Assembly: GCF_041248615.1 (NCBI RefSeq)
Contig: NZ_CP158427.1
DNA length: 64,000 nucleotides
Reading direction: 5' to 3' (one strand)
From: Escherichia coli
GTDB taxonomy: Bacteria; Pseudomonadota; Gammaproteobacteria; Enterobacterales; Enterobacteriaceae
Position 1 is the stretch's first letter, and each line of letters begins with the position of its first letter. The position numbers were made by a program. This document shows positions 18,701 to 30,700 of the stretch, one piece after another.

Positions 18701-21700
18701 ACCAATATACTCCAGGTCTCAGCAACTAGGACGCACGCCTCTCGTCTCTGGAAGCAGTGGGGCGAGAGAGAAACAACATTCGTGCCACAGCTTCAAAGTG
18801 CACCAGAAAAACGGGAGCACATTTTGTCAGTCATTTTTTTAGGCTATATCACTCTCATCACGCTAATCAGACAATACCGAATTCATACTCGTAGCCTTTA
18901 TAGTTAATGCTCAAAACAGTATAAAATAGGAGAAACCGACAAAAAAAGCCCCTCAAGTGAACAGGGGCTGTTAATTACGGCTGAATATAAGGAAAACAAT
19001 TAGAATAATTCATACTCAGTTTAAGCATAACAGTACAGAGCAATAATGGTCAACAAAAACCATTAGATTTTATTTTTTCTATTGTTTTGTCTTTTTATAA
19101 AAAACAGAGCAATTAATCTAAGAAACTCCTGTCATCAATGCTCTTGTTTATAGATGGCACTGTTGCAAATAGTCGGTGGTGATAAACTTATCATCCCCTT
19201 TTGCTGATGGAGCTGCACATGAACCCATTCAAAGGCCGGCATTTTCAGCGTGACATCATTCTGTGGGCCGTACGCTGGTACTGCAAATACGGCATCAGTT
19301 ACCGTGAGCTGCAGGAGATGCTGGCTGAACGCGGAGTGAATGTCGATCACTCCACGATTTACCGCTGGGTTCAGCGTTATGCGCCTGAAATGGAAAAACG
19401 GCTGCGCTGGTACTGGCGTAACCCTTCCGATCTTTGCCCGTGGCACATGGATGAAACCTACGTGAAGGTCAATGGCCGCTGGGCGTATCTGTACCGGGCC
19501 GTCGACAGCCGGGGCCGCACTGTCGATTTTTATCTCTCCTCCCGTCGTAACAGCAAAGCTGCATACCGGTTTCTGGGTAAAATCCTCAACAACGTGAAGA
19601 AGTGGCAGATCCCGCGATTCATCAACACGGATAAAGCGCCCGCCTATGGTCGCGCGCTTGCTCTGCTCAAACGCGAAGGCCGGTGCCCGTCTGACGTTGA
19701 ACACCGACAGATTAAGTACCGGAACAACGTGATTGAATGCGATCATGGCAAACTGAAACGGATAATCGGCGCCACGCTGGGATTTAAATCCATGAAGACG
19801 GCTTACGCCACCATCAAAGGTATTGAGGTGATGCGTGCACTACGCAAAGGCCAGGCCTCAGCATTTTATTATGGTGATCCCCTGGGCGAAATGCGCCTGG
19901 TAAGCAGAGTTTTTGAAATGTAAGGCCTTTGAATAAGACAAAAGGCTGCCTCATCGCTAACTTTGCAACAGTGCCGGATTGAATATAACCGACGTGACTG
20001 TTACATTTAGGTGGCTAAACCCGTCAAGCCCTCAGGAGTGAATCATGACCGTAGTCACGACCGCCGATACCTCCCAACTGTACGCACTTGCAGCCCGACA
20101 TGGGCTCAAGCTCCATGGCCCGCTGACTGTCAATGAGCTTGGGCTCGACTATAGGATCGTGATCGCCACCGTCGACGATGGACGTCGGTGGGTGCTGCGC
20201 ATCCCGCGCCGAGCCGAGGTAAGCGCGAAGGTCGAACCAGAGGCGCGGGTGCTGGCAATGCTCAAGAATCGCCTGCCGTTCGCGGTGCCGGACTGGCGCG
20301 TGGCCAACGCCGAGCTCGTTGCCTATCCCATGCTCGAAGACTCGACTGCGATGGTCATCCAGCCTGGTTCGTCCACGCCCGACTGGGTCGTGCCGCAGGA
20401 CTCGGAGGTCTTCGCGGAGAGCTTCGCGACCGCGCTCGCCGCCCTGCATGCCGTCCCCATTTCCGCCGCCGTGGATGCGGGGATGCTCATCCGTACACCG
20501 ACGCAGGCCCGTCAGAAGGTGGCCGACGACGTTGACCGCGTCCGACGCGAGTTCGTGGTGAACGACAAGCGCCTCCACCGGTGGCAGCGCTGGCTCGACG
20601 ACGATTCGTCGTGGCCAGATTTCTCCGTGGTGGTGCATGGCGATCTCTACGTGGGCCATGTGCTCATCGACAACACGGAGCGCGTCAGCGGGATGATCGA
20701 CTGGAGCGAGGCCCGCGTTGATGACCCTGCCATCGACATGGCCGCGCACCTTATGGTCTTTGGTGAAGAGGGGCTCGCGAAGCTCCTCCTCACGTATGAA
20801 GCGGCCGGTGGCCGGGTGTGGCCGCGGCTCGCCCACCACATCGCGGAGCGCCTTGCGTTCGGGGCGGTCACCTACGCACTCTTCGCCCTCGACTCGGGTA
20901 ACGAAGAGTACCTCGCTGCGGCGAAGGCGCAGCTCGCCGCAGCGGAATGAGCGAACGTCGATATAGCCCGCTCGCGACGCTGTTCGCGGCGACCTTTCTC
21001 TTCCGGATCGGCAACGCGGTGGCGGCCCTCGCGCTTCCATGGTTCGTCCTGTCTCATACAAAGAGCGCGGCCTGGGCGGGCGCCACGGCCGCTAGCAGCG
21101 TCATCGCGACCATCATCGGCGCGTGGGTTGGTGGTGGCCTCGTCGATCGGTTCGGGCGCGCGCCCGTCGCATTGATCTCGGGTGTGGTGGGCGGCGTGGC
21201 CATGGCGAGCATCCCACTGCTCGATGCCGTTGGCGCCCTCTCGAACACTGGGCTGATCGCTTGCGTGGTGCTCGGTGCCGCGTTCGACGCACCCGGTATG
21301 GCCGCGCAGGACAGTGAGCTGCCCAAACTCGGCCACGTCGCCGGGCTCTCCGTTGAGCGCGTCTCGTCACTGAAAGCGGTGATCGGGAACGTCGCGATTC
21401 TAGGTGGCCCGGCCCTTGGGGGGGCCGCAATCGGCCTGCTTGGCGCTGCGCCAACGCTCGGGCTGACGGCGTTCTGCTCCGTCCTTGCAGGTCTGCTCGG
21501 CGCGTGGGTGCTTCCCGCGCGTGCCGCTCGGACGATGACCACGACGGCGACTCTCTCCATGCGCGCCGGCGTCGCTTTTCTCTGGAGCGAACCCCTGCTG
21601 CGCCCTCTCTTTGGTATAGTGATGATCTTCGTGGGCATCGTTGGCGCCAACGGCAGCGTCATCATGCCTGCGCTGTTTGTAGATGCAGGACGCCAAGTAG

Positions 21701-27700: not shown

Positions 27701-30700
27701 CCTGCTGTCACCCTTTGACGTGGTGATATGGATGACGGATGGCTGGCCGCTGTATGAATCCCGCCTGAAGGGAAAGCTGCACGTAATCAGCAAGCGATAT
27801 ACGCAGCGAATTGAGCGGCATAACCTGAATCTGAGGCAGCACCTGGCACGGCTGGGACGGAAGTCGCTGTCGTTCTCAAAATCGGTGGAGCTGCATGACA
27901 AAGTCATCGGGCATTATCTGAACATAAAACACTATCAATAAGTTGGAGTCATTACCAAACAGGGATTATTTATTCTCTCAGGCGAGAATAAAATAGACGA
28001 AGAATGTTTCATTAATATAGTCCAAACGGCTGTCGCCATAAATAACATCGGTAGAGAATCTAATGGTTATATTTTAGTTGGTGTTTCCGATACCAAAGCT
28101 ACGGCAGACAGAGTTAAGACTTTATATGGTGTTACCCCTATTGAGTGCAATGGCTATTATATCAATGGAATTGATCATGAAGCTGTAATTCAATCAAAAA
28201 ACATAGATAATTACTTTCTGTTCATAAAACAAAAAATAGAATCATTTAATTTTAATGAGGCTTTGAAACAACAAATACTAAAAGATATTTCATTATGTTC
28301 ATATGAAGGACTGCATGTTTTAAAAATCGAAATAAAAAGTGTCGGAGAAGTCTGTCATTTTGAAAATAGGTATTATATAAGACAAGGAACAGCTACGCAT
28401 TTAATCACTGACGGTGAAGCAATTAGTAGTTTACACAGATTATATTACTCATAATTACTTAAGCACTATGAAGGTATCATACACCTTCATAGTGTACTTT
28501 TTTACTGCGCTTTGGGGCTAAATTGTTTTTGTGAATAGCCAGAATATCGTGGCTACGGCGGCAATGGAAATATATGATCTCTGCTGCCAGAGACTGGAGA
28601 TGTAATTGGGGGCAGTTTGGATATCGAAAATTATTGTACTATAAGGGGTCCGCTTGAGGGGGCCGCTTGGAAAACGGAAATTTTCCCACGCTAAGAGAAT
28701 TGAGTTGAACGAGTGGTTACATCTAGGCCAGCTAACTCACTGAACGTAAAGGCTGTACGAAATGTTCCGACCGTCCGATAACCATTTGGCTTACTTCCGT
28801 ACATTTCCTTGCGTAGATGTACAGAATTGTACGATTTCGGACACCAAAACTGCTGTTGTCCCGGTGCATGAAGCTACTTTCCGGGTTGGTGGTACTGACT
28901 TTGGTGTTCTTAACGACGACGTTTTCAACTCTGAAAATCGCCTCTCTGCACGGGGATTTTTACCCCCCCATAGAGCCGTCATATAAATTCAAATTATTAA
29001 CTTTGATGGTAGAATTATCTTAGGTTTGATAAAATTTTGAGCCGTCGCCGTTTACTTCACAGGATTCAATATAATGGCTAAATATACAGTTTGTGATTAC
29101 CAATAAACTATTAGAAATAATGGGAATGGTTGTGCCAATCTCTATCTGGAGGTCTTATTGCAGGGAACATCCACCCCATCGTTACACCAATACAGAATTG
29201 CCCCCGATACAAGACATCCAGACATTAACCTAATAAAAGCGCACCTTGACGAGGGCTTTCAGCAGGCAAAGTCTGAGGGATTAAAAGTAGAGATTTCAGA
29301 TTATAAAGAACGTCTTTACCTGTACATTAGAACACCTGGTAATAACCTAATGCAATATTCTGGTTGCAGAGAAAAATAATACAGTCGCGCTGGATACGCT
29401 GACATTGACGCAGTTATATGATTTTCTGGCGTTGGTCAGTAAACCAGCTGCAGCCAAAACGGTGTAGTCCCTGACACAGGCGCCGGTCATTCTGTTAACT
29501 CATCCACGTATGGGATGAACAGTTGTTTCAGTTTGAAACCAGGGATGTCAGACGGATTTTTGCTGGCGAGTACGAAATCCGTTACGAACTTAATGGCCAG
29601 ACTATTTATGTATTGCGCCTGTGACACACACGAGAAAACAGGTAGATTGTGTGTGAGGGCAACTTTAACATAGCCTGCAGGTGTTAATTCAGGAGCATTG
29701 TTATCAGACCAAATATTTTTCATTCCATTAAATAGTCTTGTAGGGGATAAAATGAATTACGATGAAATAACGAAAATCACTGCAGAACGTATTAGCGACT
29801 ACATGACTGAAGCGGTTAATACAGACTCTAAATCTGTTGCGGAAATGTTTCATAACGCTGCATGGGGAGTGCTATCATTGTGGTTTGAACTCGTCACAAA
29901 AATAGATCTGGATATACATAAAAAGAACAGGTATGCAAGTTATGATTTTAGAAGAAAAATCGAAATGCAGCATGAAGAGTTTCAGAAAATGACAGAGCGT
30001 GAGCAAGTGCCTTTATTGAAATTGCCTGAATAACAGAGACAGTGCAAACGATTATTTCATAATAACGATTATGTAATGACTGGTAAGAAAATAACTTGAT
30101 TGAGTTCCCTTTATCCAGCCTGATAGTGGATAAAGGGAACTCAATAATAATTGAATTAATTTATTAGCTTCATCGCATTTTTTTTGGTCTCTTCATCACT
30201 TTTTTGCTCTTGTTGTGAAGAGGATTGAGTGACTATTGAAGAATTAAAATCGGCCATCTCTTTTGGAAATAGCGATCTCAATATATTCACGATATCTGAA
30301 AATGTGGTTTCTTTCGTCAGCAGCTCACATAAAAGGAAAGGGGTCCGGGGATCTTGTCTGTATAAGGCCAGACCTGCCGTCAGTGCGGCCCGGTTAAGGC
30401 GGCTTCGTTCCCCTTGCGGGATACTGTCCAGTGTATCACAAACAATTTTATCTGTTTGATTTACATCTGGATTTAGTTTGAAGGCAATGGTTCTGCGCTT
30501 GTCCATCATTAATTACCTATGAGATACATACCGTTAACTAAATCATATTGAGAGTTATTGGTTTTGAAAAAACGTTCATCACGAATCTGTGTGTGTTTTT
30601 TTACTGCATCGCATATTAATTCTGCGCCACCGCCTATAACCATAACATGAGTATAACCAGAAAATTCATTGAGCGTATTTAATACACGTTGCTCAAGTTT

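Follow-up and report, generated by a model that had tools for sequence, protein, structure and literature searches.

A multiresistance mosaic on the Escherichia coli F plasmid p14408_1, probably built from three older structures joined by IS26

Fusion and inversion of resistance plasmids by the insertion sequence IS26, recognizable by the 8-bp flanks of its copies, are well established (PMC4471558; PMC7986276). Like resistance mosaics built by IS26, they are textbook matter for plasmids of clinical Enterobacterales. The same holds true for the components with which this study deals, namely the IS26-mph(A)-IS6100 module, IS26-truncated Tn2 and the resistance determinant of R100. In the cases described by He et al. 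2015 (PMC4471558), matched 8-bp flanks act as 'tracers', a split element has an IS26 copy next to each half, the two copies being inverted, and in the fusion, once the inversion is undone, direct IS26 copies and direct repeats bracket DNA of a foreign replicon. All these features recur at the locus presented here, positions 19156-27956 of a stretch of 64,000 nucleotides from Escherichia coli (contig NZ_CP158427.1), which is called the window throughout. It belongs to the multireplicon F plasmid p14408_1 and is very probably a resistance mosaic in which IS26 joined three older structures.

A base-for-base comparison revealed that the window, read as its reverse complement, agrees exactly with positions 56651-120650 of NZ_LT599826.1, the record of plasmid p14408_1 from E. 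coli NRZ14408, a conjugative plasmid of the IncFIA/FIB/FII type with 137,186 bp. The bounds of the mosaic are exact, since 19156 is the first base of IS26-A and 27956 the last base of IS1. Between them follow IS26-A, mph(A)-mrx-mphR(A), 96 bp of IS6100, the inverted IS26-B, a piece of Tn2 tnpA, IS26-C, catA1 and IS1 (Table 1), and the RefSeq annotation names the same elements. A first, sequence-only reading had listed three IS26 copies in mixed orientation, a residual IS6100 end, mph(A)-mrx-mphR(A) and catA1 with a single IS1, and all of these were recovered; the three genes of the mph(A) module are intact, in order and, according to the annotation of the record, 100 % identical to the reference genes. 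It had also found no bla gene with the tnpA fragment. Indeed, no bla gene is annotated in the part of NZ_LT599826.1 that equals the window; blaTEM-1, blaKPC-2 and blaOXA-1 are located elsewhere on p14408_1. From its gene content the region is predicted to confer resistance to macrolides and chloramphenicol.

Each of the three IS26 copies has perfect 14-bp ends (GGCACTGTTGCAAA) and a single intact open reading frame (ORF) of 234 amino acids (aa) for the transposase Tnp26, annotated as 'IS26 family transposase', and three perfect or near-perfect repeats of 820 bp are far beyond chance. IS26-B deviates from IS26-A at nucleotides (nt) 459, 613 and 614, the latter two of which lead to the change G184N in the transposase (...KRIIGATLG... 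in A, ...KRIINATLG... in B and C), while IS26-C has the same sequence as B. IS26 with G184N is referred to as IS26-v1 or IS15-delta type and described as more active (Pong et al. 2019, as far as quoted in PMC9019673 and PMC7986276). In total p14408_1 carries six IS26 copies, including IS26-D (record 29999-30818), a G184N variant 3 nt apart from the canonical A, and IS26-E (record 130219-131038), which is identical in sequence to B and inverted relative to it. IS26-A and IS26-C are direct repeats 6325 bp apart, so that a deletion or the release of a translocatable unit is possible, and inversion is possible since B is inverted relative to both. Because direct and inverted copies are present, the region is still prone to deletion, loss of a translocatable unit and inversion.

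Table 1 Features of the mosaic and its borders in the window (IRL, left inverted repeat end; MFS, major facilitator superfamily)
Feature	Position	Strand	Left flank	Right flank	Remarks
Backbone target octamer TTATAGAT	19148-19155				abuts IRL end of IS26-A; one half of a split duplication
IS26-A	19156-19975	+	TTATAGAT	GGATTGAA	820 bp, perfect 14-bp terminal repeats, 234-aa ORF; canonical sequence, G184; WP_001067855.1
mph(A), macrolide 2'-phosphotransferase	20045-20950	+			301-aa ORF; WP_000219391.1; resistance-gene prediction 100 %
mrx(A), MFS transporter	20947-22185	+			412-aa ORF; WP_000004159.1
mphR(A), repressor	22185-22769	+			194-aa ORF; WP_001137892.1
Usual mphR(A)-IS6100 spacer	22770-23207				within the module matching pEC958
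IS6100, first 96 bp	23208-23303				starts at the IS6100 end GGCTCTGTTGCAAA; ends with CCCATGGC at 23296-23303
IS26-B	23304-24123	-	CCCATGGC	GATCATTT	820 bp; G184N variant (IS26-v1 type); WP_001067858.1
Internal Tn2 tnpA fragment, codons 123-575	24124-25480	-			open frame; both ends abut IS26 IRL ends
IS26-C	25481-26300	+	GGCGAAAT	AAAAATTA	820 bp; G184N variant, same sequence as B; WP_001067858.1
catA1 and upstream region	26301-27188 (catA1 26306-26965)	-			intact 219-aa ORF; WP_000412211.1
IS1 (IS1a of the R100 determinant)	27189-27956	+	AGTGCGTCG	AAACAGGGA	768 bp, complete; programmed-frameshift transposase annotated
R100-type F backbone: IS1-truncated ORF, stb/parM, leading region	27957-39167	+			marks the right boundary of the mosaic

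None of IS26-A, IS26-B, IS26-C and IS1 is surrounded by a target duplication of its own, and no pair inside the window, A/B and B/C included, has the direct or inverted pattern of a simple transposition or of a single inversion. The absence of intact duplications is in line with the successive IS26-mediated rearrangements that had been proposed. A pseudo-compound transposon extending from A to C is not present either, the outer flanks being TTATAGAT versus AAAAATTA. For A and B the missing partners were found on the whole plasmid: when the flanks of all six IS26 copies were compared, the IRL flank of A and the flank at the right inverted repeat end (IRR) of D turned out to be the same octamer, TTATAGAT. 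B and E likewise share an octamer, GCCATGGG (the complement of CCCATGGC), which lies at the IRR of B and at the IRL of E. The chance of one such match in 66 flank comparisons is about 0.001. Matched duplication halves on other IS26 copies are positive evidence for IS26-mediated events. The uninterrupted target is available in both cases. Plasmid pLWY6J-2 has the same afa-IS200C backbone without interruption and with a single TTATAGAT, beyond which it runs on with the DNA located behind IS26-D in p14408_1, and for the second octamer the intact IS6100 represents the empty site. A copy of IS200C (17342-18600, with a match to the small RNA STnc490 at 17975-18098) lies between afaD of the afa adhesin operon and the site of IS26-A, as is the case in pLWY6J-2.

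The IS6100 piece is a fragment and not an element. Its 96 bp are identical to the intact IS6100 of pEC958 and of p14408_2 (LT599827), an IncN plasmid with blaKPC-2 that co-resides in NRZ14408 and is one of the epidemic IncN[pMLST15] plasmids (PMC10790570). The other 784+8 bp of IS6100 are located on the same plasmid outside the window, about 33 kb away, beside IS26-E and from record position 131039 onward. Joining the two parts minus 8 bp restores an intact IS6100 as in pEC958 and p14408_2. Over the whole stretch 19156-23303, identity to the IS26-mph(A)-IS6100 module of pEC958 is 100 %, the IS26|mph(A) junction included, and the module of p14408_2 deviates by 1 nt. In contrast to both, an inverted IS26 cuts IS6100 after 96 bp in the window.

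The module does not stand alone. In p14408_2 it opens a string consisting of IS26-mph(A)-mrx-mphR-IS6100-padR-chrA-sul1-qacEdelta1-arr-3-catB3-blaOXA-1-aac(6')-Ib-cr-IS26-aac(3)-IId-blaTEM-1-blaKPC-2-IncN transfer genes-dcm, and bases 46424-86710 of p14408_2 (40.3 kb) are present in p14408_1 in three pieces. These pieces are delimited by the IS6100 split and by the two ends of the linear record, which are arbitrary and fit together exactly (p14408_2 56711/56712). For an in-silico reversal, the 32,871 bp between B and E were inverted, and E and one octamer were removed. After this operation the IncN DNA forms one block (40,292 columns, 99.97 % identity) between direct IS26 copies and direct TTATAGAT octamers, and A...D is the only pair on the whole plasmid with the pattern of a pseudo-compound transposon. 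We consider it very likely that this 40.3-kb IncN block has at one of its ends IS26-A, the mph(A) module and the IS6100 stub, and that these were not assembled locally. The F-plasmid copy of the block, which includes blaKPC-2, blaTEM-1, blaOXA-1 and the IncN transfer genes, occupies NZ_LT599826.1 1-30818 and 130219-137186 and duplicates DNA of the free p14408_2. The identities of the elements, the positions of their junctions, the split duplications, the empty sites in relatives and the collinearity after undoing the inversion are direct observations on the compared records.

To see how widespread the single junctions are, PLSDB (72,556 plasmid records) was searched with queries that combined a unique flank of 60 bp with 20 bp of IS26, a design in which IS26 by itself could not seed a match; the resulting counts are lower bounds. 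Among the matches listed, the junctions backbone|IS26-A, IS6100(96 bp)|IS26-B in the orientation of B, and Tn2|IS26-C occurred only in p14408_1, and the same was found for IS26-C|catA1 among the matches listed for 783 catA1 plasmids. Outside the window IS26-E|DUF883, where the flank on the side of the DUF883 gene is TTACGTAC, was likewise confined to p14408_1 among the matches listed. IS26-A|mph(A) is an ordinary junction present in thousands of plasmids, and IS26-B|Tn2 recurs in 11 or more further plasmids, which come from several genera. The Tn2 stub beside IS26-B is thus an inherited building block, while the remaining three junctions of IS26 within the mosaic are events confined to the lineage of p14408_1. 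Searches with each IS26 and 500-bp flanks found the full configuration of the mosaic only in p14408_1.

A complete Tn2 comprises 38-bp ends, tnpA, res, tnpR and blaTEM; here codons 123-575 of tnpA alone are present. The fragment is identical at 1357/1357 positions to the Tn2 of pEC958, which carries ISEcp1-blaCTX-M-15, and to transposons with blaTEM-1 including those of pNT1W25-82k and Klebsiella pneumoniae RDZ41 p2, whereas 14/1357 positions differ from Tn3 of pKPN-068. The transposon of pKPN-068 has been classified as Tn3 and the host transposon of blaCTX-M-15 as Tn2, the latter in pHg and not in pEC958 itself (PMC4611040). By its sequence the piece is assigned to Tn2 rather than Tn3, the two types compared. 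The closest counterparts are the IS26-truncated Tn2 structures with blaTEM-1 of pNT1W25-82k and RDZ41 p2, in which IS26 meets tnpA at the same codon, 575. The adjoining IS26 of pNT1W25-82k is the same G184N variant, and Tn2 runs on there through tnpR to blaTEM-1; in RDZ41 p2 the same IS26|Tn2 junction adjoins an mph(A) module. Unlike in these plasmids, a second IS26 cuts the window copy at codon 123, and res, tnpR and blaTEM-1 are gone. Two further sources were considered and rejected. A pEC958-type IS26-Tn2-ISEcp1-blaCTX-M-15 context has the identical sequence, yet both breakpoints differ, and plasmids of the pVE155 type (n=4), in which an IS26 lies 1 bp from the Tn2|IS26-C junction, are read as products of independent events and not as ancestors.

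At the right side of the mosaic the end of IS26-C lies 5 bp past the catA1 stop codon. Exactly at this boundary a match to R100 begins: 1655/1656 bases of window 26301-27956 agree with R100 20337-21992, the next 2000/2000 bases are identical, and window 26301-39167 is collinear with R100 20337-33222 at 98.8 %. R100 has the gene order Tn21-ybjA-catA1-IS1-(truncated ORF)-stb/parM, and the catA1 part of Tn2670 is a 'Tn9-like' element (PMC12494131). As in Tn2670 of R100, IS1a-catA1 of the window is found at the junction to the backbone next to stb/parM. In Tn9 catA1 lies between two direct IS1 copies; here there is one IS1, and the other side is occupied by IS26-C. Beyond catA1 neither ybjA nor Tn21 nor IS1b is left, as the R100 match ends at IS26-C, which took their place. 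By sequence comparison, catA1-IS1 is identified as the last remnant of the R100/NR1 resistance determinant (Tn2670), its IS1a end, in the ancestral backbone site. Its collinearity with R100 extends into the backbone, so that it never was a Tn9 that had inserted on its own. The sequence-only reading had derived the region from IS26-mediated rearrangement of older Tn9 and Tn2 structures and had left the tnpA fragment as Tn2/Tn3. The IS26-driven mosaic, the internal tnpA piece and its origin from Tn2 stand, but Tn3 is excluded by 14 mismatches and Tn9 has to be replaced by the R100 determinant in situ. An ORF at 27951-28454, annotated as 'RNA-binding domain-containing protein', corresponds to the 3' part of the gene truncated by IS1a, as in R100, and its annotated start lies inside the IS1 end. 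No plasmid was found in which the left and right flanks of the mosaic are contiguous, as in an 'empty site'. These flanks were never neighbours: R100 backbone makes up the right one, and in pLWY6J-2 the left one leads on to the FII replicon.

The comparison with related plasmids, which had been suggested for ordering the events, yielded the R100 origin (R100), the empty sites (pLWY6J-2, pEC958, p14408_2) and the IncN block (p14408_2). From these we infer the order of events and, for each step, the choice between replicative transposition and homologous recombination between IS26 copies. The starting point would be an R100-type F plasmid whose resistance determinant had been cut down to IS1a-catA1 by IS26-C and which also held an 'IS26(G184N)|truncated Tn2' block. 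IS26-B and the Tn2 stub would stem from the widespread structure 'IS26|truncated Tn2-tnpR-blaTEM-1', from which IS26-C would have removed the start of tnpA, res, tnpR and bla. In a second step IS26 may have joined the 40.3-kb part of the IncN plasmid to the F backbone at TTATAGAT, where two direct IS26 copies then flanked it, in a pattern of the cointegrate or translocatable-unit type. In a third step, the G184N IS26 beside the Tn2 stub would have transposed replicatively within the molecule and in inverse orientation into IS6100 at CCCATGGC. Its expected outcome is an identical inverted pair B and E, an IS6100 split between inverted 8-bp repeats and an inversion of 32.9 kb, which would have brought the mph(A) module beside the Tn2 stub. 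The third step has to follow the second, because IS6100 arrived with the IncN block. Identical inverted copies are predicted by one-step intramolecular replicative transposition (He et al. 2015, PMC4471558).

Several points weigh against this history. IS26-A (canonical) and IS26-D (G184N) are 3 nt apart, although a simple cointegrate or the insertion of a translocatable unit predicts identity, and in this respect the bracketing of the IncN block is unlike a clean replicative event as described by He et al. 2015. Furthermore, the IS26 that occupies the corresponding place in p14408_2 has an A at nt 379, where IS26-A has another base. As A, D and the IncN copy differ, an extra step is needed, either a crossover inside IS26 or gene conversion. 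IS26-C has no flank that matches any other IS26 flank on the plasmid, so its origin has left no footprint. The deposited record is marked linear, the arrangement rests on its assembly, and the junction census is limited to PLSDB with its lower-bound counts. There is one route that would account for the four positions at which the IS26 copies vary. An IS26 with G184N that already resided at TTATAGAT could have attacked dcm of the IncN plasmid and thereby have formed a full cointegrate, in which the duplicated dcm octamer would end CCCGTGTT. Subsequent recombination with the IncN IS26, with a crossover at nt 380-458, would have deleted the excess, and the canonical sequence of IS26-A would be a chance product of this recombination. 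We propose this route as an inference; its crossover would have to fall into about 10 % of the IS, and gene conversion is an alternative. A homologous-recombination integration of a translocatable unit and a conservative (end-targeted) IS26 reaction were also considered for A/D and discarded, as the variant patterns predicted by them were not seen.

The strongest competing explanation for the IncN block is a circular translocatable unit of 40 kb, consisting of one IS26 and mph(A)...dcm', which left the IncN plasmid and inserted replicatively at TTATAGAT, with gene conversion at a later time. The flank pattern L-TTATAGAT|IS26|mph(A)...dcm'|IS26|TTATAGAT-R fits insertion of such a unit into a new target. 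Nevertheless, both bracketing IS26 copies should then carry the A of the IncN copy at nt 379, and neither does, whereas attack on dcm followed by deletion explains all four variable positions without conversion. We regard the translocatable unit as a possible, though not the probable, vehicle. For B and E, two separate steps would lead to the same flanks, namely a simple insertion of IS26 into IS6100 with an 8-bp duplication and then homologous recombination with an inverted IS26, and a RecA-dependent inversion between inverted copies is plausible in a plasmid with six of them. This course is unlikely, as it needs an additional IS26 copy and an additional event. Moreover, B and E are identical, and for equivalent cases a one-step route was argued by He et al. 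2015 (PMC4471558). The junctions on their other sides also speak against it: the junction between the IRL of B and Tn2 is old and shared, and that between the IRR of E and DUF883 is private, which fits a single parent IS26 between Tn2 and DUF883 that was split in one step.

A purely local build, in which IS26 inserted one time after another and independently into a Tn9 and a Tn2 already present and mph(A) arrived as a small IS26 unit, is very improbable. It would agree with the absence of an own duplication from every IS26 and with the frequent occurrence of IS26-mph(A)-IS6100 modules and of IS26-truncated Tn2 as building blocks. However, catA1-IS1 is collinear with R100 into the backbone, the mph(A) module becomes continuous with 40 kb of IncN DNA after a single inversion is undone, and the remainder of IS6100 with the matching 8 bp is found on the same plasmid. 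Finally, a wrong joining of the F and IncN plasmids through their 820-bp IS26 repeats, so that the mosaic would not be one molecule, has hardly any likelihood: both assembly records are marked linear and the strain has a free IncN plasmid with the same 40 kb, but p14408_1 contains junctions that are absent from that plasmid (IS26 in dcm; IS26 on both sides of the split IS6100 with the correct 8-bp duplication) and that no repeat collapse can produce, the record ends join exactly at the p14408_2 position given above, and the IS26 variants are spread coherently.

With fusion of an IncN block by IS26 followed by inversion as the favoured history, p14408_1 can be set beside pEC32009-KPC2 (CP104951), a full IncN::IncF[F36+31:A4:B10] cointegrate (PMC10790570). 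The survey of IncN KPC-2 plasmids names only p14408_2 for NRZ14408, and LT599826 is not mentioned (PMC10790570). We tentatively put forward that p14408_1 might be an unreported, partly resolved IncF::IncN fusion that gave NRZ14408 a second blaKPC-2 on a conjugative F plasmid, that the canonical IS26-A might be a recombinant of two IS26 variants (nt 380-458), and that CCCATGGC might be a recurrent target of IS26. In pEF01, an IncHI2 plasmid of Escherichia fergusonii (NZ_CP040806.1, 9001-9140), IS26-mph(A)-mrx-mphR is followed by an IS6100 cut at the same base as in the window, with 96 bp left and ending CCCATGGC. The IS26 beside this stub, compared with window 23244-23323, is of the canonical type and in opposite orientation to IS26-B. 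Either the same 8-bp target was hit twice independently, or the coincidence has a cause that is so far unexplained.

Outside the mosaic the window contains further repeats and nested elements. The F leading region contains three G+C-rich copies of a direct repeat (about 550 bp, 94 % alike; 35848-36400, 39170-39720 and 44566-45115), in front of a gene encoding a DUF3560 protein, in front of ssb and behind hok/sok, respectively; presumably they are single-strand initiation elements of the Frpo/ssi type of F-like plasmids. An inverted repeat of about 625 bp (89-96 %; 8546-9170 and 29405-30031) comprises in one copy a RelE/ParE toxin-antitoxin locus; in the other, located in the R100-type backbone, the toxin gene is a frameshifted pseudogene. 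A direct repeat of 297 bp (88 %; 1751-2047 and 11561-11857) lies in two tyrosine recombinase/integrase genes, one adjoining the FIB replicon and the other the colicin M immunity gene. A group II intron at 4125-6790, recognized by Rfam D1-D4 matches (4125-4413) and reverse-transcriptase ORFs, is broken by an IS3-family element, and a match to the small RNA isrC (5609-5731) falls within the same interval. At 63348-64000 (record 53749-57303) ISEc12 of the IS21 family is nested in IS903B, which is inserted in the tra operon between trbA and traF.

The sequence of p14408_1 has been public since 2016, and the mosaic adds little that is new for the biology of these plasmids; the partial IncF::IncN fusion is possibly undescribed, yet it would be an epidemiological detail and not a new kind of system. 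The macrolide module would have moved together with the KPC-2 carbapenemase block from an epidemic IncN plasmid to an F plasmid, which is useful for tracking, though unsurprising. The locus serves as a worked example of a residual fragment and unpaired IS26 flanks that can be resolved to events only by means of the whole replicon and the co-resident plasmid.

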